Assembly (NCBI GenBank): GCA_041740355.1
Contig: JBGSMD010000063.1
Coordinates: forward strand, 53,002 to 117,001
Reading direction: 5' to 3'
Length of the DNA stretch: 64,000 bases
Source of the DNA: Bdellovibrionota bacterium
Lineage (GTDB): Bacteria; Bdellovibrionota_C; UBA2361; CALJRW01
Shown here piece after piece: positions 4,827 to 48,309 of the stretch. Position numbers and translations under genes: made by a program. A model generated the notes under the pieces. The model was not told where the DNA came from, did no database searches, and saw nothing but the letters and a program-made list of their open reading frames with translations. Every line of letters starts with the position of its first letter. Within the stretch, counting starts at the first letter, position 1.

Positions 4827-4859
4827 AACAATTAATTAATTACGTTTAGGGCTGCTTCG

Positions 4860-5315
4860 TTATGAGGCAGAAATTCCTCCACCTAGAAAGATTTCAATCT
4901 TCTTAGTAAGTCCAGTCGTATCAGTAATATAAAATTCTTCATTATTTGGAAAACCACGAGAGTCAATACAAACTGACCAAGTGGTCGTGGTAAAAGTTGC
5001 CCCCACTGGTAAATCAAAGGTTAAACGTTGATCGTCGACCCAAGCATCTGCGGAATCACATGATTTGCGATAACTAGCAACAACCTGCGAATTACCGTTG
5101 GGAATAAGTTGATAAGCTACTAAATTAGCAATTGATTTAGCCTTAGCTAATTTATAAACACTAAGGACTTGATCCGTTGCAGATTGAGTTGGGGATACTA
5201 AATCTTTTAAATTCAAAACAGCGATCAACGATAAAATTCCAACTAGAGACATTACTACAAGAAGCTCGGCTACAGAAAATGCTTTAACTTGTAAAAATCT
5301 ATCTAACATACTCAT
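4860..5315 (-). CDS. Type IV pilin-like protein / pseudopilin (FimT/GspH-like)
   Basis: ...LQVKA|FSVAELLVVMSLVGILSL. Glu at +5 and a hydrophobic helix, with Ala instead of Gly at -1. Confidence 0.6.
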   Translation of the reverse strand: MSMLDRFLQVKAFSVAELLVVMSLVGILSLIAVLNLKDLVSPTQSATDQVLSVYKLAKAKSIANLVAYQLIPNGNSQVVASYRKSCDSADAWVDDQRLTFDLPVGATFTTTTWSVCIDSRGFPNNEEFYITDTTGLTKKIEIFLGGGISAS

Positions 5316-5530
5316 TTATATCGGCCTAAAGCAGGATAACTTTAATTTTTAGCCCTTAAGTGCGAAAACCACCTCGAACGTACTTTTTAAAAAATTACTT
5401 GGAATTACAATCAATTAAGATACTCTATAGTATGTTTTATTTGCTAAAAATAGCTTATTTTTCGCATACTCATACTAATTTAATCAACTTCATGATTTTT
5501 ATCCAGAGAACGGGTGTCATTTGAGCGAAA

Positions 5531-33623: not shown

Positions 33624-35549
33624 TTAAAGATCTACCTCTAACCGATGTGCATTCTCCTGAATTAATTGAAATCGATCTCCTGTTTCCTTACCCAGTAAAC
33701 TTTCTAAGGAAGCATTAACTTCAAATTCATCAACAATATCAATCTGCAACAAGCTTCTTGTCTTTGGATCCAAAGTCGTAGACCAAAGTGTACTTGGATT
33801 CATCTCCCCTAGACCTTTAAAGCGAGTAACTGTAATTTTACGACTAGCAAACTTCTTTACCAACTTCTCTTTATCTTGGTCATTATAAGTCCAATGAGTT
33901 TCTTCTTTATTACCCACGCCTAACTTTACTCGGTAAAGAGGTGGTAATCCTAAATAAACATGGCCATTCTCAACAAGCTTCTTCATGTATTTATAAAAGA
34001 AAGCCATCAGTAATGTAGCAATGTGCATTCCATCCGAATCAGCATCGGTTAAAATAATAACTTTGGAATATCTTAATTTTTTCAAATCAAGACTCTCACC
34101 CATTCCACAACCTAGCACCGCGACAAGATCCATTAGCTCAATATTAGCTGTCACTTTATTACTAGCCGAAGCTACCGTATTCATCACTTTGCCGCGTAAT
34201 GGAAAAATAGCTTGAGTTTTACGATCTCGTCCTTGCTTAGCAGAACCACCCGCCGAATCTCCTTCCACGATAAATAATTCAGACTTATTTGCCTGAGTAC
34301 TAGAGCAATCGGCTAATTTTCCCGGTAAATTTAATCGTCTAGCTGCACCAATTTTTCTGGAGACACTTTGTGATGCCTGACGCGCAGCTTGTCGGGCACG
34401 CGCAGACAATGTAATTCTTTCAATAATTTGATTAGCTACAGCCGGCTGTGAGTTAAGAATGTTTTCTAAACTCCGAGCAACATTTTCCACCGGGGCTGTG
34501 ACTTCCACATTATTTAACTTATCTTTAGTCTGTCCTTGAAACTGTAATTGAGCAACAGAACCAGGAACATTAATGGAAACAATAGCAATTAATCCTTCGC
34601 GAAAATCATCTCCGGTTAATTTAATTCCTTTTAGTTTTACATCATGAACATTAATGTAATTACGAATAGCCTTTGACAAACCATTCTTAAAGCCATCTTC
34701 ATGACTTCCACCCTGAGGCGTAGGAATTCCATTCACAAAAGAAAGAATCTTACTCTGAGTTGATTCCGTCCAAGCAAAAGCTAACTCCACTTTGATACTT
34801 TGATTACTATCAAAATAAAAACTTTCCTTACTAATGGAAGTCATCTTATAACGCTCTAAAAGCATATCTAAATATGCTTTTACGCCATCTTGAAAACAAT
34901 AGGTTTTAACTGTAGCTGCGAGATTATCTTTATAAATAATTTTAAGCCCTTTATTTAAAAAGGCTTTAACTTCCACTAGATGCTCAATTTCAGAACTAGC
35001 AAATTTAGTTAATTTAAAAATTTCAGAATCAGCTTGAAAGTAAATTTTTGTTCCCGTTCTTTTAGTGGCAGTTCCTTTTTGCAACTTCGTCAAAGGCTTA
35101 CCTCGACTATACTCTTGAGTCCAAACAAAACCATCGCGAGCAACTTCAGCAATCAATTTAGAGGAAAGAGCATTAACCACCGAGGAGCCAACTCCATGTA
35201 ATCCACCAGCAGAGGCATAGCTATCGTCGGAAAATTTACCCCCGGCATGAAGTGTTGTTAAAATAATTTCCAGTGCTGGCTTTTTCATTTTTGGGTGGAT
35301 ATCAACGGGGATACCACGTCCATTATCAGCAATGCTGATACCTTGAGCATCTCGATCTAGCTCCACGATGATTTCAGTTGCATGTCCATTCATCGCTTCA
35401 TCAATTGAGTTGTCAAGAATTTCTTTTACTAAGTGATGTAAACCAACAGAGTCAGTTCCACCAACATACATACCAGGTCGGTGCCTCACTGGATCTAAGC
35501 CTTCTAAAACATCAATACTGGAAGCGCTATAATTTTTACTTTTTGTCAT
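33624..35549 (-). CDS. parE: DNA topoisomerase IV subunit B (ParE; GyrB-family ATPase/TOPRIM, short form)
   Basis: GHKL ATPase motifs (EILDNSIDEA, GLHGVGSSVVNALS). TOPRIM EGDSAGG. PLRGK. 641 aa with no GyrB insert, paired with a 752-aa A subunit. Confidence 0.75.
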   Translation of the reverse strand: MTKSKNYSASSIDVLEGLDPVRHRPGMYVGGTDSVGLHHLVKEILDNSIDEAMNGHATEIIVELDRDAQGISIADNGRGIPVDIHPKMKKPALEIILTTLHAGGKFSDDSYASAGGLHGVGSSVVNALSSKLIAEVARDGFVWTQEYSRGKPLTKLQKGTATKRTGTKIYFQADSEIFKLTKFASSEIEHLVEVKAFLNKGLKIIYKDNLAATVKTYCFQDGVKAYLDMLLERYKMTSISKESFYFDSNQSIKVELAFAWTESTQSKILSFVNGIPTPQGGSHEDGFKNGLSKAIRNYINVHDVKLKGIKLTGDDFREGLIAIVSINVPGSVAQLQFQGQTKDKLNNVEVTAPVENVARSLENILNSQPAVANQIIERITLSARARQAARQASQSVSRKIGAARRLNLPGKLADCSSTQANKSELFIVEGDSAGGSAKQGRDRKTQAIFPLRGKVMNTVASASNKVTANIELMDLVAVLGCGMGESLDLKKLRYSKVIILTDADSDGMHIATLLMAFFYKYMKKLVENGHVYLGLPPLYRVKLGVGNKEETHWTYNDQDKEKLVKKFASRKITVTRFKGLGEMNPSTLWSTTLDPKTRSLLQIDIVDEFEVNASLESLLGKETGDRFQLIQENAHRLEVDL

Positions 35550-35581
35550 ATCTATTTTTAATACTCTTACTAATTTGAAGC

Positions 35582-37838
35582 TTAATCTTCAATTCCTACA
35601 ACTTCTGATTTCACAGGTAATTTATTTCCCTTCAACCCACGACCAGTTTTCTTAATTTCTTTCAAACTGATCTTTTTATTTTTTAGATCTTTCATTACCA
35701 AGGTGATCTCGCGATCCTTACTCCAAGATACTGCTAAAGCTAATGAGTCTCCTTTCTTAAAACCCATTAAGCTGATTCCTACAGCCGGAGCATTTCGTTC
35801 TTGGACTTCATTCTTATTAATAGTTATGGCGTATCCTTCTCTGGAAATTAAGCTGATCAACTTATCTGGCTCAATGATTGTTCTGAGTTGATCTTCCCCT
35901 TTTAATTTCATGATTCGTTTACCATTACGTTTCACATCGGCTAAACCTTCAATTTTTGTTTGGAATCCTAAGCCATTAGAACTAATTAGAATAAATTCTT
36001 GTCCTTCGGCCAGATAGAACTGGTAATCATTAATATGTCCTAAATCTAAATCAGATAATAATCCGTAGCTGGAAACAATCTTTTCCCCATCTTTAAACTT
36101 CAGGTGTTTCTGAATTGGATCTCCATACCCGCTAGAAGAAGGGAAATCTGTCACAGCCATGCTGTAAACATTTCCTAAGCTAGTAAAGAATACAACTCGG
36201 TCAAGTGTATTTAGTGGATGAGCGACCAATAAAGAATCACCTTCTCGTAAGCGACTAACTACAGGGTCATTTCCTTGACGAATTCGTTTAATCCAACCAT
36301 CCGTACTAACTAAGGCAAAGACTTCTTCTTTGACAACAAAGTCATCAGCTTGAATTTCAAACTGGACGTGATCTTTCAGGATTTGAGATTTACGGTTATC
36401 ACCAAATTCTTTAGCAACATGTTCTAAGTCAGCTTTAACTGTTTCGGCAATTTTCTTAGCACTATCAAGGATTTTTTGAATCTCTGCTAATCTTTTTAAT
36501 TTCTCTTTTTGCTCAGCACGAATCTCTTCGATGTTAGTCCTAGAAAGTTGATAAATCCTTAAGTCAACAATTGAGAAAGATTGAATTTCTGTTAACTTAA
36601 AATGCGCCCGTAATTTTTCTGCAGCATCTGACCTTCCATCACTGCGGCGAACAATCTGAATAGCTTTATCTAGGTCAGCAAAAATCAAGACAAAACCTTC
36701 CAGGATGTGTAGCCGTGCTAGTAAATTTTTCTTTTCAAATTCCAATCGACGACGAACAATGCCTTTTCTAAAATCAAGGAAATGTTGCAACATTAACTTG
36801 AGCGACATTGGCATTGGCACAGTCACTTTATTTTTATCAGGTGCCAGTGCTGTTAAGTTCACATTAAAGTTCTGCTCTAGTGGAGTATTCTTAAACAGAT
36901 AGGCCATAACGTTTTGGACGTCTGAGTCAGCTTGCAACTCAAGTACTACACGGACATCGGTAGTTGACTCATCACGAATATCCACTAACTGTGGGACTTT
37001 GCGATTTATAATTAAATCAGCAATTTTTTCAACCAACTGAGATTTGTTAACCATGTAAGGAACACTTGTAATCACAATCTGTTTCTTGCCTCGGTTTTCT
37101 TTTTCCTCTTTCCAATCGGCACGCATCTTAATTGGACCACGTCCTGTTTCGTAAATCTCTTCTAGCTCTTTTTTAGTGTTGAGAATCTGACAGCCTGTTG
37201 GAAAGTCGGGACCTTTTAATGCTGCGACTAACTTAGAATTAGGCACTTCCGAATCTTCTAATTGTAATAATAAGGCCTTAACAACATCTCTTAAATTATG
37301 TGGTGGAATACTTGTTGCCATACCAACAGCAATTCCAGTAGCGCCATTTACCAATAAGTTTGGTAATCGACTTGGCATGACCACTGGCTCTTTCTTAGAG
37401 GCATCGAAGGTATCACGAAAATCAACTGTTTCTTGATCGATCTCTCCCAATACTTCTAAGGCAATTGGAAGCAATTTAGCTTCAGTGTAACGATATGCTG
37501 CTGCTGAATCTCCATCCATCGATCCAAAATTACCTTGCCCATCAACTAGGCAGTAACGCATGCTAAAATCTTGCGCCATGCGAACCATCGCTTCGTAACA
37601 GGCAACGTCTCCGTGTGGATGATAGTTACCAAGAACTTGCCCAACAATTGTTGCTGACTTTTTATAACTAGAAGTTGGTTTCAGATTTAAGTCGTGCAAC
37701 ATGGCATAAAGAATTCTTCTTTGAACAGGTTTAAGCCCATCACGAACATCGGGAAGTGCTCGCCCGGAGACAACACTAAGTGCGTAGGTCAGGTAACGAT
37801 CCTGTGCTTCCTGTCGAAAAGGTGTGCTAATAATAGTC
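35582..37838 (-). CDS. parC: DNA topoisomerase IV subunit A (ParC; GyrA family)
   Basis: Active-site region RYTEAKL and the GyrA-type N-terminal domain. The start is set at the internal Met MTIISTPF because the longer ORF extension reads into the repeat element. Confidence 0.75.
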
Positions 37839-37860
37839 ATATACTGCTTGGAATTGAATA

Positions 37861-38116
37861 AACCCTCCGCAGATAACTTGCGGAGGGCGAGCGTAATCTT
37901 GGCTTTTTTACCAGACGTAGCATTTGCGAAGTCTGAAGCCAAGTTGCTCCGTAGAAGATAAAACCAATACTCACCGCTGATTTGCGTAGGGTTTGGTAGT
38001 ATTTTCTTCAGCAAAATCTGTCTCCCTCTTTCGCCAAAGCTTCAGAGGACAATTCGCCAGGATTTTGCTCGTTCACCTTACTTTCATTTTTTATAAAAAA
38101 TGAAAAGCGGTGAGCA
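37861..38116. repeat. Structured MITE-like repeat, copy C (about 256 bp)
   Basis: See copy B. Lies between the parC start and sspB. Confidence 0.6.
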
Positions 38117-38296
38117 TCTTATAATAATATCAGATAGTTATAGCGAGGGTGAGCTCAAGCTTTAATTTTATGATGATCTTAATTTAAACAAGAAGACCTG
38201 TTCCGTAAAGGGGGTCTTACAAATAGTCTTAATTTCTCAAAAAACACTGCTACTTCATAATTTGAAAATACTAGCCATGTAGGTTAGTTTAGCCCT

Positions 38297-38788
38297 ATGA
38301 CATTTTCCAGAACGGATGAAAAATACCAGACTTTAGAGACTCACCTAAGCCAGGATCAGTATTTAATGGTACATCTAAACCCTACTTACCCTGGTGTTTT
38401 AATACCAGAGAATTTTCTTGCTTCACCAACTCTTACACTAAAGTTAAGTTATAATTTTCAAGGAGTTACCGTTATCACCCCAGAATTAATTACGGCAGAA
38501 CTTATGTTTAATGGTAAACATTTTTCCTGCCGAATTCCACTGGCAGCGATTTGGGGTTGCACAACTATTGCTGAGAAAAACTTCATTTGGCCAGAAAGTC
38601 TTTCAGCAAATTCCTATGAGAGTTTAGCCACAGAAATGGAAAGTATTAAAAAACCTAAGTTAGCTGTTAATAAACAAGAAGATATTTCTACACCCTCTTC
38701 TAATCTTAAGAAAATTGAATCTGATCCCAAGCAGGAGGAACCAGTAGCAGAAAATAAAAAACGTCCAAACCTCACTCGAATTAAATAA
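38297..38788 (+). CDS. sspB: Stringent starvation protein B (ClpXP adaptor SspB)
   Basis: SspB-like core (LNPTYPGVLIPENF...IPLAAIWGCTTIAEKNF), an acidic linker, and the C-terminal ClpX-binding tail RPNLTRIK, comparable to RPALRVVK. Confidence 0.65.
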   Translation: MTFSRTDEKYQTLETHLSQDQYLMVHLNPTYPGVLIPENFLASPTLTLKLSYNFQGVTVITPELITAELMFNGKHFSCRIPLAAIWGCTTIAEKNFIWPESLSANSYESLATEMESIKKPKLAVNKQEDISTPSSNLKKIESDPKQEEPVAENKKRPNLTRIK

Positions 38789-38813
38789 CCAATAGAAGAT
38801 AGCTGTTGAAGAA

Positions 38814-41150
38814 ATGATTAATTTAAAAGTTTTGATTGGCTCAACTAAGATTAATTATAATCTTATATCTTTAATTCTAGCTCTTACTTGTGTCCATCTG
38901 AGCATTTCACAAATAATTTCTAGTGAACCAATAAGTGGCTGGGACACTCCAGGGCATCTCTACTTAACATATAAGATGCAAGAATTCTTAGGATTAGGAA
39001 CCTGGTTTGGCTATGATTCAAGCTGGTTCTCAGGCACAGCTCTCTTTGTGCTGTATCCACCACTAACATATATATTAATTAACATATTACATCTTATAAC
39101 TTTCTCTTCTGATCTAACTTATAGTTTTAACCTATTTATTTACCTTCAAGCTCAATTATTAGTAATAATTTTTTACTGGATAACAAAATATATTTTAGGT
39201 GTCGAATATCGGAAATATGTGATGTTGGTGCTCACCTTAATGTTACATACAAACATTATCTATTCGACCCACTTTATAGGATTAGCAGGATTATTTTACG
39301 CAGGCTTTCTATCAAATTGTACAGGGCTAATTCTATTCTTGCTGCTATTTGCACAAATCAGAAAACTGGAATTAAACATTATTAGCTCCTCTTATACTTC
39401 AATATTAATATTGAGCTTGATTTTACTTAACCATATAATCTCAGCAATATTTACTTTAATATTTATATCAATTTACTTAGCCCTTCAGGGAAATTCAAGG
39501 GTAGCGAAAAAATGGTTTGCTGTTATCGCAGTCGCTTCGCTGGTTGCTTCCCCTTATTACTGGATATTTATTGCCAATCTAGAATTTTCATCCTCAGAAG
39601 CTATCGGGCTTCACGGATCTTTTCCCGATCCCTTATTAGTCCTCTTTCCAAATCTTAATATTGAACATTTTGTGAATATGTTTAATGCCGAATTTAGCGA
39701 TACCTTCAGTTTTTTTAACTATAAAATCGAGTTGCCATTAATCATCAGTCAATTTCCATATTATGCGCTGATTGCTTTTTATTTTGGAATTAAAGGAAGT
39801 CTTCTAATTGTTAAAAGTCAAAAAAAACTACTGGGGTTTCTTTTTACAATTACTATCCTCTTCATATTCTTACCTCGCGCTTACTTAACAAACCTAACTA
39901 GCCTGACAATCCACTACTATCGCTTTACTGGCCTGCTGAGTTTCATGTTTATTTTTATAATTGCCTCTGGGATTAAACATTCTGACTACACACATAGCAA
40001 TTTGAAAAAAATACTCGGAGGTATATTTCTTGCTCTGATTTTACTACTAACAACGTCGTATCAGATGCTTTTCATTAGTGATTCTAGACATCAAGAATTT
40101 AAGCTACACCTGAGCGATTATCAAGGATATCAAAACCTAGATAAGGTTGCTAAATACCTTAAAGAGAACAATCTAACTGCAGGTGTTGCAATTGAGCAAA
40201 GCTATAATTTCCTCCTACAAGTCGGTTCCCTTCATGCCGTTTCATATCTTTTCCCGCATAAGTATAAAATCCCAATCAAGACTGGACTACTAGCTGAGTC
40301 AGCTTATTACTCGTCATTAATTAATCCCACTTTAGGTCTTCAAACAAATCACATGGTTTGGGGAAGTAAAGAATTATACCTTTTTAACTATTTTAATAAC
40401 CCAAAAAAAAATCCGAATTTATTTATTGAGAAGCTAAGGCTTTTAGGAGTAAAAGTATTAATCACAACAGATCGGGACAGCTTCAAAAAAATTAAAACCC
40501 TAACTCTTCAAAATCGTTTTCTAGTACTAAATAAAAAGATTGCTAATTATGCTATATTTGTTTTGCCAGAGTTGTCCCTAAAGAAAACCAACTCAATCAA
40601 GCCCCGATATCTATTTTTTGATTCAAAAGAATTAGCATTCAAAATGTTTTTTAGAGACTGGTTTGCTTATGATTCAACGATTAATTTTAACCTAGTATAC
40701 GATTACTTCAATTTGACTCAAAAAGATCCTAGCTTATTAAGTCAATTTTCAGGATTAGTCTTTTCCGCTGAGAATACAAATTCTTGTCTTAAGAATTACG
40801 AAAAGCTGAAGAGCTTGCAAGGTGATCTGAATGAAAAGTTAATCCCCTTAATTGATCAACAAAACCAGCAGCAAGAAAACCCAGCAATCCAAAAGCATAA
40901 GAGAGACTTTTATGATTTAGATATTATTTTCTTGGGTAAGAAGTGTTTTAAAGATCCGAACTGGAAAGTTAAGTGGATTAAAACAAATAATCCAGAAGAG
41001 AGAATGGCAAAACTAACAAAACTAGTTCAAAAAAATAAGCTAAAAATTCTCGTTAATAATAGACTGATTAATACGGAAGATACGTTTAGCCCACTAAATG
41101 GTAATAATTCATTTATCCAAACCCCGTTTTTTACTCTAAAGGTTAGGTAG
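38814..41150 (+). CDS. Large polytopic membrane protein with C-terminal soluble domain (GT-C-fold glycosyltransferase-like, uncertain)
   Basis: At least 12 predicted TM helices in the first 420 aa. First extracytoplasmic loop carries SGWDTPGH. A C-terminal soluble domain of about 350 aa. Strongly AT-rich codon usage. Confidence 0.5.
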   Translation: MINLKVLIGSTKINYNLISLILALTCVHLSISQIISSEPISGWDTPGHLYLTYKMQEFLGLGTWFGYDSSWFSGTALFVLYPPLTYILINILHLITFSSDLTYSFNLFIYLQAQLLVIIFYWITKYILGVEYRKYVMLVLTLMLHTNIIYSTHFIGLAGLFYAGFLSNCTGLILFLLLFAQIRKLELNIISSSYTSILILSLILLNHIISAIFTLIFISIYLALQGNSRVAKKWFAVIAVASLVASPYYWIFIANLEFSSSEAIGLHGSFPDPLLVLFPNLNIEHFVNMFNAEFSDTFSFFNYKIELPLIISQFPYYALIAFYFGIKGSLLIVKSQKKLLGFLFTITILFIFLPRAYLTNLTSLTIHYYRFTGLLSFMFIFIIASGIKHSDYTHSNLKKILGGIFLALILLLTTSYQMLFISDSRHQEFKLHLSDYQGYQNLDKVAKYLKENNLTAGVAIEQSYNFLLQVGSLHAVSYLFPHKYKIPIKTGLLAESAYYSSLINPTLGLQTNHMVWGSKELYLFNYFNNPKKNPNLFIEKLRLLGVKVLITTDRDSFKKIKTLTLQNRFLVLNKKIANYAIFVLPELSLKKTNSIKPRYLFFDSKELAFKMFFRDWFAYDSTINFNLVYDYFNLTQKDPSLLSQFSGLVFSAENTNSCLKNYEKLKSLQGDLNEKLIPLIDQQNQQQENPAIQKHKRDFYDLDIIFLGKKCFKDPNWKVKWIKTNNPEERMAKLTKLVQKNKLKILVNNRLINTEDTFSPLNGNNSFIQTPFFTLKVR

Positions 41151-41153
41151 TAG

Positions 41154-41312
41154 CTAGTTATAATTCATTTTATCTGCTGTAAATTTTAATTTTTGTGAGC
41201 TAGCTCTTCCCATAGCAGTTACGGCAACGATGGTTACGATAGCGATTAACGCAACAAGTAGTCCATACTCAACTAATGATGCCCCTTTTTTATTTTTATT
41301 TATTTTTTTCAT
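41154..41312 (-). CDS. flp: Flp/Fap-family type IVb prepilin (52 aa), absent from the supplied ORF track
   Basis: MKKINKNKKG|ASLVEYGLLVALIAIVTIVAVTAMG carries the Flp processing motif G/xxxxEY plus a hydrophobic helix. Confidence 0.7.
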   Translation of the reverse strand: MKKINKNKKGASLVEYGLLVALIAIVTIVAVTAMGRASSQKLKFTADKMNYN

Positions 41313-41363
41313 ATTCTTCTTTATTGGGTTTCCCCGTTAAATACGCCTGATTGATAAATCTAG

Positions 41364-41960
41364 TTAAATATCTAATTTTTTGCAATTAAGATGGAAATTA
41401 TTAGGTAAATCTACAGTTAGTGTAAACTGATATGCGCCTGCTACTGCTATATTTAATTTAATATTCTGACTGTTTTCGCCATTGAAAAGTGTAAAATCTT
41501 GATTCAAAGTAAGATTAGATCCCTCTTGTTCGAATCCAAATACAAAAGGGCTAGTCCAATCTTGATCTGCGATTTTAAATTCATACTCTCCGGGAATTAA
41601 GGGTAATACTACTCGATAGTTATTCCCGCCAACTGGCAAAAGCTGATTATAAGCTCCCGCTTTCCAATTCTCAATTCGATTAACACGAAGAAACACATTA
41701 CGATCAATACTTTTTATTGGATTATTAGCACTATTTTCTTGCGTAATTGGATTAAAATAAACTACAACGGCCAATAATAAGATTACAAGAAAAATTATCC
41801 CTCCAAAAATCTTGGCATAAGATTCCATCTTTTTCCTAAACCTATATTGTTCTGCGAATTTTTTTAAATTAGCAGTGCTTCTTGATCGAACCGAATCTTG
41901 AATAACATCGCCCAGACCTAATTGATCCTGTCTTTTAAACGTTCTTTTATTAAATATCAT
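41364..41960 (-). CDS. Hypothetical membrane-anchored protein with beta-rich C-terminal domain
   Basis: Single TM (IFGGIIFLVILLLAVVVYF). C-terminal domain rich in beta strands. Upstream of flp on the same strand. Confidence 0.4.
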   Translation of the reverse strand: MIFNKRTFKRQDQLGLGDVIQDSVRSRSTANLKKFAEQYRFRKKMESYAKIFGGIIFLVILLLAVVVYFNPITQENSANNPIKSIDRNVFLRVNRIENWKAGAYNQLLPVGGNNYRVVLPLIPGEYEFKIADQDWTSPFVFGFEQEGSNLTLNQDFTLFNGENSQNIKLNIAVAGAYQFTLTVDLPNNFHLNCKKLDI

Positions 41961-42185
41961 AACTAGCTAAGTTTATCAGATAACGAATTAGAATTACAGA
42001 TAAGATCTACTGTAAAGTATCAAATATTATCGGTTTATTCGTTACAAGCTAATCACAACAACCACAGGGCCCCTAATGAAAGGGATCAGAATGACCTGAT
42101 TATTCAATCCATTTGAATTATCTTTACAATTAGAAAATGGATTAATTCGATACAAACGTTATGAATTGTTAGCACTCTGGTTTAG

Positions 42186-43604
42186 GTGTATATTTATATT
42201 TGGTTGGTTTGTGCAACCTATCGATTAGAACATATTAAAAAAGACAAACGGACCCAATCAGCAATCTTAGTAATGAACCTACTGCAAAAACTCTCCTCCC
42301 GTGAAAACTTTTTAGCAATCCTTGATATTTTAAAAAGTAAAAAAAAATCAAAATCTTGGATTCTACAATCTGCCCCGATTGAAAAATCAATATCGCTTGC
42401 TTGGTGTATTTATAACCAAGACTTACTTATCAAGTATTATTTAAAAAACTTAAGAAATCATTCCTATCGCCCACAAGTAAGAATTAAAATGACTATTTTT
42501 ATAGATAAACAAAGGATTATCTATAATATTAACTGGGTTGATAAAATTATGGACTATGCCCTGACTAAACTACTTTTTGATGTCAGTGCGGAATTTTTCT
42601 CCGATCAATTATTTTCCTATCGCCAAGGATTTTCTAATAAAAAAGCAGTAAAAAGCCTCTGTAAATATATCAAGAATAATCAAGGCTCAGAGATCTACAT
42701 TGCCAAACGAGATATTAAATCATACTTCGATAATATTAATAGCGGGATTTTAACCTCACAAATTAAGGAGAAATGTGGCGAGCAAGATTCCTTTTTTTGG
42801 AAACTTTTAAGTAGTTTCTTACAACCAGAATATTATGATCCGGAGCTAGATCTTCAGGAGCAACTACTTCTAGGAATACCAACTGGATCTTGCATCTCTA
42901 ACTTTGCTGCGAATTTTTATTTGCACGACCTTGATCATTTAGCTGTAAACAATTTAGACTTTTATGTTCGCTATGGAGACGATATAATTTTTGCTGATCG
43001 GGATAAGGATAAGCTAAATCAGCTTCTTAATACTTATCAAGAAAAAATTTTGGAACGCGATCTTAAATTCCACCCAGACAAAGATCTATTCCTGAAAATC
43101 GGACCAACTTTAGCAAGCTCCAAAGATTCGCCCTATCAAAGCAAAAAAGTATTTGATTACCTAGGTTACCAAATTAGCGACGAAGGACTTATCTTCCTAA
43201 AGTCTTATAAATTTAAAAAACTAAAAAAGGATATTAAGAGTAGACTATTCAACTCCTATCGCACATATTACCGTGCTGGACTAAGTAAGGATCTGCAAAT
43301 GTCTAATCTGATTAAAGACCTAAATGGTACGATGCGAGATTTAAATTACTATAATCATTTCGCCGATCTTGTCCTATTCACGACTGATAAACCACGACTT
43401 AAGGAATTTGATATTTGGATTGCTCAAACAATTATTGCCATGACTCATAACTGTTCTCGCGCTAATGCGTTTGGGAAAATTTCCTACAGACAAATACGCG
43501 AGGCAGGTCTATTCTCGATTCTAAATTACAAGAATATTTATCCTAGAAGAAATGAAGTTCTCCGATCTACAAAAAATCTCCAAAGCAGATCAGCAACGAC
43601 GTAA
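42186..43604 (+). CDS. Reverse transcriptase domain protein (RNA-directed DNA polymerase; no retron/DGR/group II hallmarks seen)
   Basis: RT motifs: YRPQVRI..IDKQ (motif 1), SYRQGFS (motif 2), YIAKRDIKSYFDNI (motif A), GIPTGSCISNFAANFYL (motif B'), YVRYGDDIIF (motif C as YGDD), FDYLGYQIS (motif E). The listed ORF begins with GTG. An internal ATG at 42273 is an alternative start. Confidence 0.8.
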   Translation: MYIYIWLVCATYRLEHIKKDKRTQSAILVMNLLQKLSSRENFLAILDILKSKKKSKSWILQSAPIEKSISLAWCIYNQDLLIKYYLKNLRNHSYRPQVRIKMTIFIDKQRIIYNINWVDKIMDYALTKLLFDVSAEFFSDQLFSYRQGFSNKKAVKSLCKYIKNNQGSEIYIAKRDIKSYFDNINSGILTSQIKEKCGEQDSFFWKLLSSFLQPEYYDPELDLQEQLLLGIPTGSCISNFAANFYLHDLDHLAVNNLDFYVRYGDDIIFADRDKDKLNQLLNTYQEKILERDLKFHPDKDLFLKIGPTLASSKDSPYQSKKVFDYLGYQISDEGLIFLKSYKFKKLKKDIKSRLFNSYRTYYRAGLSKDLQMSNLIKDLNGTMRDLNYYNHFADLVLFTTDKPRLKEFDIWIAQTIIAMTHNCSRANAFGKISYRQIREAGLFSILNYKNIYPRRNEVLRSTKNLQSRSATT

Positions 43605-45786
43605 TCTTGTCCGTAAAGGACTAGAGCAGTATGATCTCAGATCCTACTTACGCTACTTAAGGTATCGAATTAAATGGCCAATACTTTTTAAGTTACTTTC
43701 TCGACTAATTGTTATTGTTGAAGTGATTCTAATTCAACAACTATTTACTTATAATATTTTTGCAGACTTAACTCTCTATATTTTCATTATTTTTATCAGT
43801 CGAAGCGCCCTAAAAGGTATTACTCAATACTATCGTGTGCAACTAATGCCCCTAGCGACGGCAAAAAACATTTCTGGCCTAAATATCGCCCTAAGTAAGG
43901 CTCTGATCATAAACATCTTTTCTGCCTTTTTATTAGCCTTGGTCATTAGCATTCTTTGTCTACTCTTAGATTTATCGGATCAGTTAAACACTTACTTTAT
44001 AATTTCCTGGTGCTTATTAATCCCGCTAGAGCAAATTACCACGCAGCTTTGGAATACCGTCTATCTTAATACCCGACTAAGGCGAAGTGCCTTGATTACT
44101 TTCATTTGCCGCATGCTTCCAATCATTTCACTATTAGCTTTTAGCAGCTTGATTGGCCCCCTAAGTTACATTCTGGGTACATTTATGGCGAGATTATTAG
44201 AAAGTTTTTACTTATCGCGTGTCGCAATTTTAGCATTAAAGTTCAAATTTACATTAAAGAAGAAATCGAGCAGTTTGTTACAAGTTATCGGACAGTATTT
44301 TAAAAATCAAAAGGCGCGCCAATACCTTTACTTTAATGCCATCCTACCCTGTTATTTTTTGGGTCTTGGATTAATCATCTTTGAACGGGGAGTCGGTACC
44401 TGGATTACAAATATTATTTATTTTTTTATTTTAAATTTTGCAGTTTTTTTTACTACACAAATTTCACGCTCAATTCAATTTGACATCTACTCCTGCTTTA
44501 AAAAAGGGCAGGTAAAAAAAGCAACGTTCTTAGGCAAAAGAATTGTAAAATATACTTTGAACTTTGCTGTAATTCTAGCAGCTAGCTTTATCTATTTACT
44601 CTTAAATTCCAAAAGGTTTTACCTTTTCATACCAATTAGCTTAGAATATTTTCTATTAATCTTACCCTTGGCAGTAATTGCTCAAACGTTTTTTTTTTCG
44701 ATCTATGCCCAAATCCAATCCCTAGCAATCGATCGTTATTTCACCAAGCTAATCTTCATTAGCTTCCTCCTAATAGGCTTACCAATTCAGTTCCTTCTAT
44801 TTCATTATTACCTCGCAAATCTACAAGCGATCTACTGGACTGAAATCCTTCTCTTTGTGTTTGTAGGTACACTATTATATTTAAATTTGAACTTTAATCT
44901 CAGTCCCTTTTTAATAAAGTATATCAAAAGAGAGCGGAAGGCTCTGCCCCTGTGCCAACCAACTGCACTCCAATTAGAGCTCCGAACTAAATATATCAAA
45001 ACTGGCTCAGCTTATCTTTACATATTATCTTATTATGAGCGGGATGCTTTCTGGGAACGCATTAAGTATTCACTTCCCCAAACAAAAGATTTCTTAATTA
45101 CCCGGTACTCTGCTGGGCTCTTCCTGCTTTCATCTCATCAACCACTGACGGATCTTGATTTTCGCAACCTAAGCTTTGTTGCCAAAAAGCAAATAGATTT
45201 AAGCCAAGAGCTACTGCAGACTTTACTGGATATTTATACTTTTTACTATTCTCTAGAATTTAGAAATAGCTCATTCCAAAAAATACGTAATAAGTTCTAT
45301 CTTAATAGATCCATCAAAGAAGAATTGTATCAGTTAGCGGAATTAAAGAGGCCAGTAGATCAAATAATATCAGAGTTGCTTGGAGCTCCTAGGATCGTCT
45401 TCAAAAATGGTAAAATTTCTTGTTTGGGCAAAGTCAGTAATAAACTTTATAATTTTGCTTTGAACCAATATTTTTATCCTGACAATAACTTGGCTCCCGC
45501 AATTCAAGGATCCCAATTAACAATCAGAATTAATAATACGGAAACAATTAGTTTCGACTTAAGGCACTTGAATAGTTACCTAATTGGACAAGTTAATAAA
45601 AAGATTTTTTTCCTCAATCAATATTATTATTTTAAGAATATTATTGATCCCCATTTGCCATATGCAGCTAGCATTCAAGATTATTTAATAGCACGGAGAC
45701 TGATTCATAAACATACCCGTCGCTGTAAAACGAGAAAGGCTGACCATTTAGCAGATCTCAATTTTTATAATCATAAATTAGTATGA
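43552..45786 (+). CDS. Polytopic membrane protein (about 12 TM, MOP-flippase-like topology) with a 290-aa C-terminal soluble domain
   Basis: Hydrophobicity pattern. Overlaps the RT gene by 53 nt. AT-rich. Confidence 0.55.
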   Translation: MKFSDLQKISKADQQRRNLVRKGLEQYDLRSYLRYLRYRIKWPILFKLLSRLIVIVEVILIQQLFTYNIFADLTLYIFIIFISRSALKGITQYYRVQLMPLATAKNISGLNIALSKALIINIFSAFLLALVISILCLLLDLSDQLNTYFIISWCLLIPLEQITTQLWNTVYLNTRLRRSALITFICRMLPIISLLAFSSLIGPLSYILGTFMARLLESFYLSRVAILALKFKFTLKKKSSSLLQVIGQYFKNQKARQYLYFNAILPCYFLGLGLIIFERGVGTWITNIIYFFILNFAVFFTTQISRSIQFDIYSCFKKGQVKKATFLGKRIVKYTLNFAVILAASFIYLLLNSKRFYLFIPISLEYFLLILPLAVIAQTFFFSIYAQIQSLAIDRYFTKLIFISFLLIGLPIQFLLFHYYLANLQAIYWTEILLFVFVGTLLYLNLNFNLSPFLIKYIKRERKALPLCQPTALQLELRTKYIKTGSAYLYILSYYERDAFWERIKYSLPQTKDFLITRYSAGLFLLSSHQPLTDLDFRNLSFVAKKQIDLSQELLQTLLDIYTFYYSLEFRNSSFQKIRNKFYLNRSIKEELYQLAELKRPVDQIISELLGAPRIVFKNGKISCLGKVSNKLYNFALNQYFYPDNNLAPAIQGSQLTIRINNTETISFDLRHLNSYLIGQVNKKIFFLNQYYYFKNIIDPHLPYAASIQDYLIARRLIHKHTRRCKTRKADHLADLNFYNHKLV

Positions 45787-47513
45787 AATCCAAAAGTTTA
45801 ATCTACTTTATTTTCATTTTACTAAGCTTAATTATTGGACTATCGCTCCACGCTGAGAGAATCGAAATACCTCTTTACGTTCTACGAAAAGCAATTACTT
45901 GTTCTAGTGTTCAAGAGAAAACATTGGAAGTTGTTTTCCAAAACAAGTCTTATTTGATCGCATTTGACCATATTTACAGTACTCCCGTTATTAATGCAGG
46001 TTTAGTCTGTCAACGTTTGATCCGCTACTTAAAAGCAGCGCCTTCGCCCAATTTAATCATCCCTATCTCCAAAAAATATACCAAGTTCGGCCATGATATT
46101 TATGTCGATGAATCAGGATTTTTAGAAAAAGCTTGCCTAGAACAAGGGCTTTGTAAGCGAAACATCTTGGATACTTTTAAGCCCAAAAAAATACTCCGTG
46201 AATGTCATGGGAAAATTACACTAAACGGCTTATTGGCAAAATCTCGTCCCAAAATTCCTGGCTATCAAACAAAAATCATTAAAGATGTTACAATTAAAAT
46301 TCACCCATTTCATCCATTTATCAATATTCTAAATGAATACCTTCAAGATCCAATTTTAAAGGAAATTCATGCCTCTACTATGTCAATTGGTAATCAAGCC
46401 CTAGACGATATTTCTGCCAGCACGCAAAGCTACAATAAAAAGGCTGTAATTAATTATGATGCCGGAATTTCATTGTTCAATTCTCAACAAGGCCAAATTG
46501 CTAAGGCTATTACTAAGTCACCTAAAGTTCATTTTTTACCAATGACCAGTGGTAATAATTTTAGCCAATTTTATCACATCAAATTTATTGCTAGCCCACA
46601 AACTAACAAGTCAATGTTGGCCTCAATGAATTTAGCCTCAGTAGATCGAACAGCATATCTCGACCTAAATTTTTTCTTTGAGGATCCTACTATTCGCGAT
46701 GAGTTTTTATCCATCTCAAATAATAATAATCGAAGATTTTGTGATTATTCTGAAGATTATGACTGCTTAGCAAATTTTTATGATGAAAGATCAAAATCCC
46801 ATATTCCACTGGTAATAAATAGAAGTTGTCCGACAAGCAATACCGAAACTACTATCAAAAGATCTGGTTACTTTGTAAACTCCGAAGATGATGATCTCAA
46901 ACAATTTGTGATAAACTTTATTAATCAAGCAAAACAAGAAATCATTGTAACTTCCTACAAGTTAACAGAAAGAGCCATTGCCAAGGCCTTATTAAACAAG
47001 CAGCAAGAAGGGCTTAAAGTTCACGCCATGTTAGCCTTTAAATCTCCCGCATTGGGCGAATTGAAAAGCCATTTCTACTCGGGGGAAGTTGTTAAGGAAG
47101 AGTATCCTTTTCCTCACATGAAAATTATTATTATCGATCGCCGACTAATGCTATTTGGAACTGCGAACTTCACGATTAATGCTTTAAATAATACAACTGA
47201 ATTAATTGGAGTTACTGATAATCAGCAAGCAATTAAAACAGCGTTAGATCATGTCGCAGTTTTTACACAGTCCAAAGATCTGGCCTTAAGTAAAAACATT
47301 TCCAATACTCCTAAGCAGAAAAATTATGTAGCAGTGACGAGCTCTACGCAGATCAAACCAGTGAATTTACCTTTTACTAAACCGCTTGAGCAGAAATGGT
47401 TATCAAACTACCGAGAGGTAACAAAGGAAGGCGAAAAATTATTAGATAAGTGTGATTTAAGGCACCTTATTTTTATAACTAAGGCAACTTATTTGGAATG
47501 TCTTAAAAAATAA
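45783..47513 (+). CDS. Secreted phospholipase D / HKD-superfamily protein (two-domain, second HKD intact)
   Basis: Signal peptide MKSKSLIYFIFILLSLIIGLSLHA. Canonical HKD HMKIIIIDRRLMLFGTANFT (HxK-x4-D-x6-G-x-x-N). A degenerate first motif YHIKFIAS lies about 185 aa upstream. ATGA overlap with the preceding gene. Confidence 0.6.
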   Translation: MKSKSLIYFIFILLSLIIGLSLHAERIEIPLYVLRKAITCSSVQEKTLEVVFQNKSYLIAFDHIYSTPVINAGLVCQRLIRYLKAAPSPNLIIPISKKYTKFGHDIYVDESGFLEKACLEQGLCKRNILDTFKPKKILRECHGKITLNGLLAKSRPKIPGYQTKIIKDVTIKIHPFHPFINILNEYLQDPILKEIHASTMSIGNQALDDISASTQSYNKKAVINYDAGISLFNSQQGQIAKAITKSPKVHFLPMTSGNNFSQFYHIKFIASPQTNKSMLASMNLASVDRTAYLDLNFFFEDPTIRDEFLSISNNNNRRFCDYSEDYDCLANFYDERSKSHIPLVINRSCPTSNTETTIKRSGYFVNSEDDDLKQFVINFINQAKQEIIVTSYKLTERAIAKALLNKQQEGLKVHAMLAFKSPALGELKSHFYSGEVVKEEYPFPHMKIIIIDRRLMLFGTANFTINALNNTTELIGVTDNQQAIKTALDHVAVFTQSKDLALSKNISNTPKQKNYVAVTSSTQIKPVNLPFTKPLEQKWLSNYREVTKEGEKLLDKCDLRHLIFITKATYLECLKK

Positions 47514-47520
47514 AAGAAAA

Positions 47521-47650
47521 AAGAGTTGGGCGGAATTTAACGCTTACCTGCTCTATAATATCTGCCGTCAGAACCTGCACCTTTCTCCGAAGGCGTATTT
47601 ACAGATCCCCCTTGCGTTTGGAGAAGCCCGAAGGCGACAACCCAACTCTT
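47521..47650. other. Structured intergenic element bounded by a 10-bp inverted repeat (aagagttggg ... cccaactctt) with internal hairpins
   Basis: Read directly. Lies between convergent genes (PLD-like and nuoI). Could be a bidirectional terminator or an ncRNA. Confidence 0.3.
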
Positions 47651-47730
47651 AATTTAATATTACCATAGCAATTTAACGATAAACAATGATTTATTTTTAA
47701 AGTTCTAAGAAAGGAATGTAATTAAAAGTT

Positions 47731-48309
47731 TTAGTTCGACTCAACCTTTTGCATTTTCTTCATGTGGATTTGATAAAGCTCTTCTTTGCCATAATCTTCT
47801 AACTCACGTGAGCGACTCATTAAGGTTTCTTTATCTTCAATATAAAGTCTTGGATCCGGATGGTGGACTTCGGGGTGAAGTCCCGTGTCCATTCGAATGG
47901 CATCTACTGGGCAGGCTTCCACACAAAAACCACAATAGATACAAAGCAAAGTATCAATCTCATATCGTCTCGGGAACTTTTCAATTTCAGGATCATCGTG
48001 CTCTGCCGCTTCAATGTAAATACACTTTGCCGGACAAGCAGTTGCACAAAGAAAACAGGAGGTACATTTAACACTACCTTCCGATGTAAGAGTTAAACGA
48101 TGACGACCCCGATATCGCTCTGGGTAATCACGGCGCTCATTGGGATATTGAATCGCAACATCAGCAGCAATATTTTTGGCGAGACCAACTGTATGTAAGA
48201 CATGTAAGGAAAAATTCTTAGCAAGCTTGGTGAAAGTGAAGGCAACACCCTTAGCTACCTCAATCAGGTAGATCTTTTCCCAAAAATTCATTTCTTCACG
48301 ACGTCTCAT
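47731..48309 (-). CDS. nuoI: NADH-quinone oxidoreductase subunit I (2x[4Fe-4S] ferredoxin)
   Basis: Two CxxCxxCxxxCP motifs (CTSCFLCATACP, CIYCGFCVEACP). NuoI-type N-terminal extension. Confidence 0.85.
   Translation of the reverse strand: MRRREEMNFWEKIYLIEVAKGVAFTFTKLAKNFSLHVLHTVGLAKNIAADVAIQYPNERRDYPERYRGRHRLTLTSEGSVKCTSCFLCATACPAKCIYIEAAEHDDPEIEKFPRRYEIDTLLCIYCGFCVEACPVDAIRMDTGLHPEVHHPDPRLYIEDKETLMSRSRELEDYGKEELYQIHMKKMQKVESN

Follow-up and report, generated by a model that had tools for sequence, protein, structure and literature searches.

A rare bacterial system in which a stand-alone reverse transcriptase is encoded with a predicted MOP-fold membrane protein, a putatively exported phospholipase D-superfamily protein and a structured RNA

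In a 64,000-nucleotide stretch of DNA from a Bdellovibrionota bacterium, hereafter the window, we identified a set of genes spanning about 5.5 kb that, judging from sequence comparisons, is a real, conserved and very rare bacterial system. It comprises a stand-alone reverse transcriptase (RT), a large membrane protein (M), a protein of the phospholipase D superfamily (PLD) and, as its predicted fourth part, a structured non-coding RNA (ncRNA). These four parts are conserved together, and their substitution patterns place them under purifying selection. Both the catalytic residues of the polymerase and the two H-x-K motifs of PLD are preserved, in the window as well as in most family members. 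The papers searched yielded no account of such a system.

Organization of the locus

The system and its immediate neighbors are laid out in the window as follows:

41364..41960, minus strand: upstream neighbor, a divergent gene
42166..42194, plus strand: promoter-like TTGTTA-17-TATATT from a consensus scan, upstream of the RT start
42273..43604, plus strand: RT, 443 aa (the mechanical ORF opens at GTG 42186)
43552..45786, plus strand: M, a 744-aa membrane protein with no HMM match
45783..47513, plus strand: PLD, 576 aa, with a signal peptide, PLD superfamily
47521..47650, plus strand: structured ncRNA, from conservation, RNAalifold, a covariance model and shared helix order
47731..48309, minus strand: downstream neighbor, convergent, 4Fe-4S NuoI-like

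The three protein-coding genes lie on the same strand and are coupled, as an earlier note on this DNA had claimed, by overlaps that amount from the ORF coordinates to 53 nt between RT and M and 4 nt between M and PLD; the latter must read ATGA, because an ATG start overlaps a stop codon there. The isolation of the unit claimed in that note is likewise borne out by the divergent gene upstream and the convergent gene downstream, and no integrase, transposase or endonuclease domain is present at the locus, in agreement with its reading of the flanks. Both ends of the unit as first drawn had to be revised. At the 5' end the GTG at 42186 was replaced by the ATG at 42273 as the start of the RT, because orthologs open with MNLLQ, DNA similarity to a relative runs from 42271 and the promoter-like site lies at 42166-42194; promoter-like sites are fewer in the upstream region than in its shuffles, which makes this last point weak evidence. 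At the 3' end the unit extends beyond 47513, as the conserved structured RNA continues at 47521-47650.

The AT-richness of the locus had been taken as a sign of horizontal acquisition. While the GC content of the RT, M and PLD genes (32-35%) is below that of parC/parE (37-42%), it equals that of the adjacent membrane-protein genes (32-33%), and since these are equally low it provides no evidence for such an acquisition. In both related genomes available the system sits in the parC-nuoI interval, and in comparison with the closest relative RT, M and PLD are more diverged than their flanks and rearranged in position. At most loci the neighbors are envelope genes, such as those for Flp/TadE/TadG pili, GT87 and other polytopic membrane proteins, and CapK-type proteins, and no neighbor common to all loci was found. 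Genes for a HigB-like toxin, an HNH protein and an HI1420-type antitoxin surround the system at L003. In the window no known defense gene adjoins it, PADLOC recognizing only the generic RT and PLD domains.

Linkage and rarity of the system

At each of the 13 distinct loci an M homolog immediately follows the RT gene, even where M is only 15-25% identical, and the two genes mostly overlap (loci examined: the window, L002, L003, L006, L007, L009, L010, L012, L013, L014, L015, and L018 with L016). PLD adjoins the RT-M pair or sits close by in 11 of the 13, and in L010 M and PLD are fused into a single protein of 1316 aa. The search for the triad in other genomes thus lends strong support to the view that this is an uncharacterized RT-associated three-gene system and not a chance neighborhood. 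The contrary proposal, that three unrelated genes merely share an operon, has a negligible probability: their co-occurrence has been kept across proteins with identities of only 15-25%, one lineage has an M-PLD fusion and a shared ncRNA goes with the genes, so that it is refuted by the comparative data. The earlier note had also entertained envelope genes merely sharing an operon with the RT; the mere sharing falls with the same data, whereas an envelope role is kept alive by the neighboring genes.

The genes are under selection (pN 0.17-0.27 against a saturated pS of 0.75-0.77), and the system is rare. Only 26 representatives of the M family occur among 1.84 billion proteins, nearly all of 700-780 aa; a scan of a genome collection returned only the one relative already known, metagenome scans with the ncRNA pattern and the M alignment gave no match, and no homolog was found on plasmids or in viral contigs.

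The reverse transcriptase

The RT matches RVT_1 at 1.4e-19. Its motif A reads RDIKSYFD (D147, Y151), motif B GIPTG, with T in place of the Q usual in most RTs, motif C YGDD (D236, D237) and motif E DYLG, after which a thumb-like region forms the C-terminal end. Motifs A, B, C (YGDD) and E are kept across nine family members, which confirms these four of the motifs reported earlier. The protein is 71% and 52% identical to its orthologs (pN 0.17 and pS 0.75 in an ortholog comparison) and 24-30% identical to more distant relatives. A tyrosine is present in the C-terminal tail of most family members; because it is missing in some, protein priming is neither supported nor excluded.

Among solved structures the family profile matches the DRT9 RT best (1.7e-28, profile positions 34-393 of 431), followed by the group II RT GsI-IIC. 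All nine family members match UG26, Drt9 and UG17 models at 1e-28 to 1e-33 (the best UG17 value being 1.6e-28), that is, several UG groups at similar E-values. With the PADLOC models, for which no cut-offs are given, the window RT scores 112 bits for UG26 (model positions 68-390 of 398), tied with the generic RT at 112, then 88 for UG17 and about 84 for Drt9. The profile-HMM check proposed in the earlier note brought it to no curated threshold of the retron, group II or Drt3a families. Hence, as placed by these model scores, the RT appears to represent a previously unclassified family closest to the DRT9/UG26/UG17 and group II RTs.

The affinity to group II RTs raises the prospect of a decayed group II intron or another mobile retroelement with cargo genes, which we hold to be very improbable. 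The RT does align, with 107 bits, to the RT/maturase model TIGR04416 for the greater part of its length (model positions 37-331 of 353), a span that makes the reported absence of a group-II-type thumb (X) domain doubtful, and GsI-IIC is its second-best solved relative. However, the score lies far below the 300-bit cut-off, Rfam scans give no intron RNA domains even at E up to 10, as the earlier note had anticipated, no integrase, transposase or endonuclease domain is encoded, and there is one copy per locus with the RT always tied to M. The sub-threshold score, the missing intron RNA and the RT-M linkage largely refute this reading.

A retron assignment was rejected, in line with the earlier note: the RT scores 34 bits with the retron_St85_RT model against a cut-off of 235 and 17.5 bits with the TIR-retron model against 600, and neither an Rfam retron RNA nor an msr/msd was found. 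Diversity-generating retroelements (DGRs) were likewise discarded, again as first suggested, no DGR repeat having been found and the ncRNA being single-copy in the window even with A positions masked.

The membrane protein and the PLD protein

A structure model gives M a 12-TM domain of the MOP/MATE fold (residues ~30-450), followed by a cytoplasmic alpha/beta domain (residues ~460-720) of unknown fold, and thereby bears out the earlier description of M as MOP-like. Fold matches of the model include the Wzx and MurJ flippases. Residues E57, R175, P190 and D311 are invariant across the family, with the invariant Arg, Glu and Asp lying within the membrane domain. M is thus predicted to share its 12-TM fold with MOP transporters (MATE, Wzx, MurJ) but differs from them in lacking any sequence-model match (none in Pfam, NCBIfam or PADLOC at E up to 0.1), in its extra cytoplasmic domain of ~290 aa and in being encoded with an RT in every locus examined. 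Nine other family members gave no Pfam match at E up to 0.01. A word-indexed homology search with M, as a single sequence or an alignment, recovered only the 58% ortholog, low-complexity membrane words saturating the index.

The PLD protein has the following features:

residues ~1-24: signal peptide, conserved in the family
N-lobe: H265-x-K267...S281-M-N283
C-lobe: H445-x-K447-x4-D452-x6-G459-T-x-N462, the canonical HKD motif

The signal peptide and conserved cysteine pairs of the disulfide type belong to a protein that we predict to be extracytoplasmic. In the L010 fusion the former signal peptide forms an internal TM segment. The C-lobe matches PLDc_2 with 60.2 bits against a cut-off of 27, and its residues H445, K447, D452, G459 and N462 are conserved family-wide. 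The earlier note described a two-domain HKD protein with a signal peptide; the signal peptide and the C-lobe stand as described, while for the N-lobe the H-x-K...SSMN motif is conserved in eight of nine proteins, PLDc_2 matches are faint (E 0.24-0.26 in two of six N-lobes, at the correct position) and an hhalign profile-profile comparison of the two lobes gave nothing.

The nearest named relatives of the C-lobe are the single-HKD nucleases NucT, Nuc and DrmC, at 40-47 bits against equivalog cut-offs of 133-351 (on PLD the NucT models reach 31-42 bits against 211-351, and DrmC 40 against 133). Nuc and NucT are exported enzymes, like PLD. With its 576 aa PLD differs from all three in having a divergent second HKD lobe, as well as an N-terminal region of ~150 aa and a C-terminal extension, and there are no DISARM genes at the locus.

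The structured RNA

Whereas no RNA structure had seemed evident in the earlier note, a conserved pseudoknotted ncRNA belongs to the system. It is ~130 nt long in the window (~130-200 nt for the system) and has these elements:

47521-47530 pairing with 47641-47650: P1, terminal helix
47571-47577 pairing with 47602-47608: PK, pseudoknot helix
47582-47588 (pyrimidine-rich) pairing with 47620-47626 (purine-rich): P3
47589-47601: conserved joiner GAAGGCGUAUUUA, beside the pseudoknot
47626-47635: P4, hairpin

The ncRNA is far better conserved than the coding DNA of RT, M and PLD, with 93% identity over 87 nt to a relative saturated at synonymous sites and 92% over 26 nt to one whose proteins share 39-52%. 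RNAalifold and a covariance model support the fold, and nine copies from eight loci share the helix order P1, PK, P3, P4; the eight strand segments have identical order and spacing in eight of these, the ninth (L018) having been fitted by eye. The covariation table rests on a hand alignment, used because MAFFT could not align the distant copies, in which 139 of 150 cells from five copies are pairing and all four helices show compensatory changes. Built only from copies of the window clade, a covariance model detects the two L014 copies (E 0.004) and ranks the L013 ncRNA first in 60 kb (E 0.066). In most copies the joiner, which adjoins the pseudoknot, contains a conserved run of U. Across loci the ncRNA is located either 3' of the operon or in divergent orientation to it. 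In the window the covariance model finds one copy only, and no second copy appears even with A positions masked.

No Rfam family matches the ncRNA, either in the whole window at the gathering threshold or in 41900-47800 at E up to 10; the scan for msr/msd-like RNA suggested by the earlier note thus gave no retron RNA, the conserved RNA at 47521-47650 standing in its place. A loose pseudoknot scanner was uninformative (856 matches), and a strict one returned only two of the known copies, plus about six other sites in 341 kb. No ncRNA was found for the L006/L007 clade; a long inverted repeat 3' of PLD in L006 was rejected as it does not fit the architecture; the fit of L015, judged by eye, is loose. 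The intergenic region ahead of the RT (41961-42272) was also dismissed as an ncRNA site, not being conserved in L002, where the gap is 44 nt.

Comparison with known RT systems

In DRT9 an RT and its ncRNA synthesize poly-dA, with a protein as primer and a U-tract as template (PMC12483538). Like the present system DRT9 (UG28) combines a stand-alone RT, of ~450-500 aa, with a structured ncRNA, of ~150 nt, and its conserved templating U-tract (PMC12483538) has a counterpart in the joiner U-run of most copies here. The Drt9 score of ~84 bits, however, is no better than that of several other RT models; the DRT9 ncRNA lies upstream on the same strand, whereas ours is 3' or divergent and not recognizably related; and DRT9 needs no protein partner, while the RT here has two envelope proteins as obligatory neighbors. 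DRT10 consists of an RT, an ncRNA and a SLATT membrane effector (10.64898/2026.06.29.735271). As in DRT10 (UG17), RT, ncRNA and membrane protein are encoded together and all nine RTs match the UG17 model; in place of a 2-3-TM SLATT pore the partners are a predicted 12-TM MOP-fold protein and an exported PLD, and the RT is no UG17 member by any threshold applied. UG26, of class 2 UG/Abi, gives the window RT its highest PADLOC score, tied with the generic model; nine of its 35 members adjoin a Vsr-type endonuclease gene, with no mention of a MOP or PLD partner (PMC9226505). A dedicated structured ncRNA encoded with the RT is a feature shared with UG/Abi class 2 RTs (UG26, UG28/DRT9, UG17/DRT10); no Rfam family matches the ncRNA, which is not recognizably the RNA of those systems. 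Retrons offer a further parallel in combining an RT, effector proteins and an ncRNA closed by a long terminal helix (compare the a1/a2 pairing), and control in toxin-antitoxin style is plausible for both; in contrast to retrons, the ncRNA is built around a pseudoknot where they have an msr/msd stem pair, and it follows the third gene instead of preceding the RT on the same strand.

Possible functions

The reading we favor, giving it a little less than an even chance, is that the membrane effector pair is under the control of an RT-ncRNA module resembling those of DRTs and retrons, and probably serves phage defense. If DRT9, DRT10, DRT2 and retrons are a guide, the RT would bind the ncRNA as scaffold and template, with the conserved GNAGGC-AUUU joiner beside the pseudoknot as the leading template candidate, and the complex would generate a DNA product in the cytoplasm. 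M, as an inner-membrane protein of the MOP/MATE fold, could read the presence, absence or alteration of this product with its cytoplasmic C-terminal domain and switch an envelope module, namely transport through M and/or activity on phospholipid or nucleic acid of PLD, which would be a Sec-exported phosphodiesterase working on the outer side of that membrane and physically linked to M. Phage infection would then lead to envelope damage or cell arrest, a defense of the abortive-infection type. This is consistent with the DRT9 and DRT10 precedents of an RT with an ncRNA, with the toxin, antitoxin and HNH genes near the L003 system and with the greater divergence and rearrangement of RT, M and PLD against the closest relative. 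It sits less well with the lack of an adjoining defense gene in the window, the envelope genes next to most loci, a parC-nuoI position that in two related genomes looks stabler than a typical defense island, and the lack of homologs on plasmids or in viral contigs. Moreover, MOP proteins are normally substrate exporters and not switches, and we know of no defense system with a Sec-exported enzyme and a MOP-fold transporter as its effector.

Given that the neighbors are mostly envelope genes, an envelope function stays alive as the main rival, which we judge unlikely but worth serious consideration. Here M would export or flip an anionic, phosphate-containing substrate that PLD processes or transfers (transphosphatidylation) at the outer face, and the RT-ncRNA would make an exported short DNA or DNA conjugate or regulate the pathway, yielding a surface polymer, extracellular DNA, or DNA uptake and turnover. 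The MOP fold of M, with Wzx and MurJ flippases among its matches, the invariant Arg, Glu and Asp in its membrane domain and the export of PLD, whose nearest named relatives Nuc and NucT are periplasmic or secreted nucleases, all fit this scheme; so do the recurring Flp/Tad pilus, GT87/polytopic and capsule-type neighbors, the stable position in two related genomes and the one lineage with PLD fused downstream of M via a TM segment, which would place PLD at the outer face beside the transporter. Yet its extreme rarity and patchy distribution set the family apart from core envelope machinery, no neighbor is conserved across all loci, and to our knowledge no envelope pathway uses a reverse transcriptase, nor are MATE and Wzx cavities known to pass nucleic acids. 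In a further, improbable scheme the RT-ncRNA complex would synthesize DNA, either as such or conjugated to protein or lipid, M would move it across the inner membrane and PLD would cut or transfer it at the outer face.

The signal peptide and disulfide-type cysteine pairs of PLD, and the fact that PLD-type phospholipases serve as antibacterial effectors, would also suit an antagonism or addiction module, to which we assign only a slight probability. PLD would be a secreted or periplasmic toxin (phospholipase or nuclease), M its exporter or an immunity or gating partner, and the RT-ncRNA product an antitoxin or regulator as in retron triads, with no dedicated phage sensing; the coding overlaps imply a fixed stoichiometry. 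A precedent is the RT-made msDNA of retrons, an antitoxin against a host toxin (PMC12483538). No secretion-system genes are consistently linked, and the M-PLD fusion, by which PLD is anchored in the membrane of the producing cell itself, speaks against a diffusible toxin. The module overlaps heavily with the favored defense model, and sequence alone cannot separate the two.

Conclusions

Domesticated bacterial RTs, which make msDNA and carry out de novo gene synthesis in DRT2, poly-dA synthesis in DRT9 and telomerase-like repeat synthesis in DRT10, have repeatedly revealed unexpected biochemistry. To these the present system adds an RT family that is new to the classification and a new, well-defined ncRNA, with an effector pair, a MOP-fold transporter and an enzyme on the far side of the membrane, for which we know of no precedent. 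Since its parts are compact (~5.5 kb) and clearly delimited, the questions it raises are directly testable by cloning. If it functions in defense, it would show how a signal from a cytoplasmic RT crosses the membrane; should it serve export, reverse transcription would for the first time be tied to the cell envelope. Were DNA itself exported, reverse-transcribed DNA would occur in the periplasm, on the surface or outside the cell, with a possible tie to Flp/Tad pili, a surface polymer or DNA exchange.

Organization of the locus

The ORF list bore out the arrangement described in the earlier note, namely three overlapping genes on the same strand, with a divergent gene upstream and a convergent one downstream:

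42186/42273-43604, + strand: reverse transcriptase (RT; ORF list)
43552-45786, + strand: 744-aa membrane protein (M), overlapping the RT by 53 nt (ORF list)
45783-47513, + strand: 576-aa phospholipase-D-superfamily protein (PLD), overlapping M by 4 nt (ORF list)
Upstream of the unit, divergent: 198-aa protein gene (ORF list)
Downstream of the unit, convergent: 4Fe-4S (NuoI-like) gene (ORF list and domain search)

The RT had been started at a GTG at 42186; the real start is the ATG at 42273, because three lines of evidence concur: all RT orthologs begin with MNLLQ at this codon, DNA similarity to the nearest relative begins at 42271, and a promoter-like site lies at 42166-42194. The GC content over the three genes is 32-35%, which is below that of parC/parE and equal to that of the adjacent membrane-protein genes; hence, the AT-richness, formerly seen as consistent with horizontal acquisition, is uninformative on origin. 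Elsewhere in the window the 10-mer CAGAACCTCC occurs three times on the + strand (18000, 18336 and 18840; spacing 336 and 504 nt), always inside a 556-aa minus-strand ORF (17731-19401), suggesting that the encoded protein is internally repeated.

The reverse transcriptase defines a small family

The RT matches RVT_1 (1.4e-19) and has only eight detectable relatives in an index of 5.8 billion proteins. A nine-member alignment showed that the catalytic residues are kept (motif A RDIKSYFD, motif C Y-x-R-Y/F-G/S-D-D, motif E DYLG), and that motif B is G-I-P-T-G in place of the P-Q-G of most RTs. The latter form is found in group II, retron and retroviral RTs, and its glutamine touches the incoming nucleotide; to judge from the motif, substrate handling in this family may differ from that of other RTs. 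In PADLOC, the UG26 model and one for RTs in general lead with ~112 bits each, followed by RT-Cas1, UG17 and Drt9, and the NCBIfam Drt3a model gives 64 bits against a cut-off of 200. Among solved structures the family profile best matches the DRT9 RT over almost its full length (1.7e-28; 9ioa/9nlv/9vku, codes assigned via the DRT9 papers), with the GsI-IIC group II RT second (4.7e-25) and Cas6-RT-Cas1 third. These affinities suggest a position between the class 2 UG/Abi RTs and the group II-like RTs, with membership in neither by the thresholds applied.

Several established identities were considered and set aside. A group II intron is rejected on an RT score far under the cut-off (NCBIfam group II RT/maturase, 107 bits versus 300) and the absence of intron RNA in an Rfam scan at E up to 10, and a retron on similarly low scores (34 bits versus 235) and an RNA of another kind, as the earlier note had anticipated for both. 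For a diversity-generating retroelement, no second, variable copy of the ncRNA was found even with adenines masked. A mobile element is likewise rejected, since gene content at the locus includes neither integrase nor transposase, in agreement with the earlier reading.

A MOP-type membrane protein and an exported HKD protein

M has no match in Pfam, NCBIfam, PADLOC or the PDB sequence set, and searching all 1.84 billion representatives with HMMER recovered only 26 relatives; nearly all are 700-780 aa long and share 15-25% identity with M of the window. An AlphaFold2 model built from an alignment of 25 of these 26 is confident (pLDDT 87.1, pTM 0.86) and upholds the proposed MOP-like N-terminal half with a soluble C-terminal domain: residues ~30-450 are predicted to adopt the MOP-superfamily transporter fold, and residues ~460-720 an alpha/beta domain without a recognisable relative. 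E57, R175, P190 and D311 are invariant throughout the family.

The PLD protein had been described as a secreted, two-domain HKD protein. Its signal peptide is conserved and its C-terminal lobe is canonical (H445-x-K447-x4-D452-x6-G459-T-x-N462; PLDc_2 60 bits versus a cut-off of 27), so that this part of the description stands. For the N-terminal lobe the picture is mixed: an H-x-K followed by S-S-M-N is present in eight of the nine family members and faint HMM support for an HKD lobe falls at the correct position in two of six N-lobes (E ~0.25), but profile-profile comparison of the two lobes gave no match. Its closest named matches are NucT and Nuc, both nucleases, and DrmC, all scoring far under cut-offs. 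Numerous cysteines are conserved pairwise, consistent with an oxidising, extracytoplasmic site.

A conserved structured RNA accompanies the unit

The ~130 nt 3' of the PLD stop codon (47521-47650) share 93% identity over 87 nt with the closest relative, in which synonymous sites are saturated, and a 26-nt block is 92% identical in the relative whose RT is 52% identical. RNAalifold recovered a 10-bp closing helix with compensatory changes together with internal helices. Compared with shuffled sequence, folding is improved on the plus strand (z -2.4) and unremarkable on the minus strand (z -1.1). The region yielded no Rfam match at E up to 10; where the earlier note had proposed scanning for an msr/msd-like ncRNA, there is a conserved structured RNA of another kind.

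A hand alignment fitted to the structure, comprising five copies (the window, L002 and L003 from other contigs, and two tandem copies in locus L014), has pairing bases in 139 of 150 cells. Compensatory double changes occur at 8 of 10 positions in the closing helix P1, 3 of 7 in the pseudoknot helix PK, 6 of 10 in P3 and 2 of 3 in the hairpin P4. The strand order P1-5', PK-5', P3-5', PK-3', P3-3', P4 hairpin, P1-3' recurs with similar spacing in eight copies, and a ninth, in L018, was judged by eye to fit; in all copies P3-5' is pyrimidine-rich and P3-3' purine-rich. With a covariance model from the window clade alone, the two L014 copies were recovered at E 0.004 in 701 nt, and the L013 copy was the top hit in 60 kb, at E 0.066. 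In controls, closing stems of at least 10 bp occurred in 11% of random 300-nt windows and the strict pseudoknot pattern at about six unrelated sites in 341 kb, so that no single helix is decisive; their combination is. L010, L012, L013 and L018 carry the element upstream of the RT, on the strand opposite to it, and the remaining element-bearing loci have it 3' of PLD, on the PLD strand; L015 fits only loosely, and none was found in L006 and L007. The joiner between P3-5' and PK-3' (47589-47601) carries a G-N-A-G-G-C ... A-U-U-U motif in most copies and is the best candidate for a template or RT-contact site.

The tandem copies of L014 (4789-4942 and 5152-5288, within 4789-5450) differ by compensatory changes, with repeats of GGTGAGTG(N)CACCG-like units after each. 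The L013 copy (2363-2546, minus strand) has a long purine tract, AGAGAGAGAGCAGGAGGAGAGAGAGAGCAGCAG, in its variable 5' part.

Conservation and genomic context

The triad singled out in the earlier note recurs in other genomes, with the RT upstream of M throughout and PLD usually near. All three genes accompany the 71% and 52% identical RT orthologs, and in eight further contexts, two reached via distant RTs (L006, L007) and six via distant M proteins, M always has the RT directly before it. PLD comes after M in L009, L014 and L015, is convergent with it in L013 and L018, and in L006 precedes the RT by ~1 kb; none is present within the short L012 contig. In L010 M and PLD are fused as a single 1316-aa protein, in which what was the signal peptide of PLD is now an internal hydrophobic stretch (residues 717-735). 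This fusion ties the two functionally and fixes their topology, with the C-terminal domain of M inside the cell and PLD outside.

Relative to the closest relative, RT, M and PLD are 71%, 58% and 62% identical (ParE 96%, ParC 95%); their non-synonymous divergence is 0.17-0.27 with synonymous sites fully saturated, implying purifying selection on all three. Their pS is 0.75-0.77 (42273-47513) versus 0.61-0.67 in parE, parC and a 778-aa protein gene (33624-41150), which could reflect older alleles acquired via recombination or a different codon bias. In both genomes the unit lies between parC and nuoI. A block (38814-41960; L008 13732-16836) made up of the gene for this 778-aa protein, which has 10 TM segments, a small flp-like gene and the gene for the 198-aa protein is upstream of the unit in the window and downstream in the closest relative, which also has an extra GT87 gene; one of the two, unit or block, has moved.

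Pilus genes, for Flp pilin or the assembly proteins TadE/TadG, occur within one to three genes of the system in four contexts (window ~41150-41364, a putative flp gene by DNA similarity to L002; L002 16009-16167; L003 9707-9922; L010 12064-14560). In L013 (914-2320, minus strand) and L018 (81-1508, minus strand) the ncRNA is followed on the same strand by the gene for a protein of ~470 aa and about nine TM segments (33% identity, E 5e-71), whose sole Pfam signal is a faint EpsG/Wzy-like match (E 0.66) and which may be a fifth component in this sub-clade. In the RT clade that is most distant, both members have a divergent TSCPD-domain gene upstream of the RT (L006 3394-3759 and L007 129-509, both minus strand). 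No M homolog was found in searches of plasmids and viral contigs. The loci span 31% to 58% GC, indicating diverse hosts. A single sequencing run, SRR28170465, the source of L009, L012 and L017, contains the system in three different versions, one being the copy of the window and two having M proteins 25% and 22% identical to that of the window.

Functional considerations

RT, M, PLD and the ncRNA are conserved together, with the polymerase and HKD catalytic residues intact; the RT and the C-terminal domain of M lie in the cytoplasm, and PLD, which can be tethered to M, has an extracytoplasmic location. To our knowledge, domesticated RT-ncRNA-effector systems of known function are nearly all anti-phage, and we therefore rank defence by abortive infection first, as a tentative reading by analogy held with slightly less than even confidence. 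MOP proteins are exporters; M could thus be a true exporter, with PLD processing its substrate on the outer side of the membrane. The recurrent Flp/Tad pilus, GT87-type or other polytopic, and capsule-type neighbours and the stable position of the locus in the two available relatives also favour such export, which we rank as the main rival, less probable than defence.

Under the preferred defensive reading, the closest parallels are DRT9, in which an RT uses an ncRNA as scaffold and template to make protein-primed DNA (PMC12483538), and DRT10, which combines RT, ncRNA and a membrane effector (10.64898/2026.06.29.735271). The present system shares with both the pairing of an RT with an ncRNA, and with DRT10 also a membrane partner; retron logic is similar. 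By analogy, an RT-ncRNA particle would generate a DNA product, the state of which would be sensed by the cytoplasmic domain of M, and M would in turn switch on the envelope module. In the literature we found no description of an RT coupled with a transporter of MOP type and a PLD protein, and the two main RT surveys (PMC9226505, PMC8632793) report no such linkage; the ncRNA is without a matching RNA family. The system is of a kind already known, an RT with an ncRNA and an effector, in which all three elements (RT family, ncRNA, effector pair) are new.
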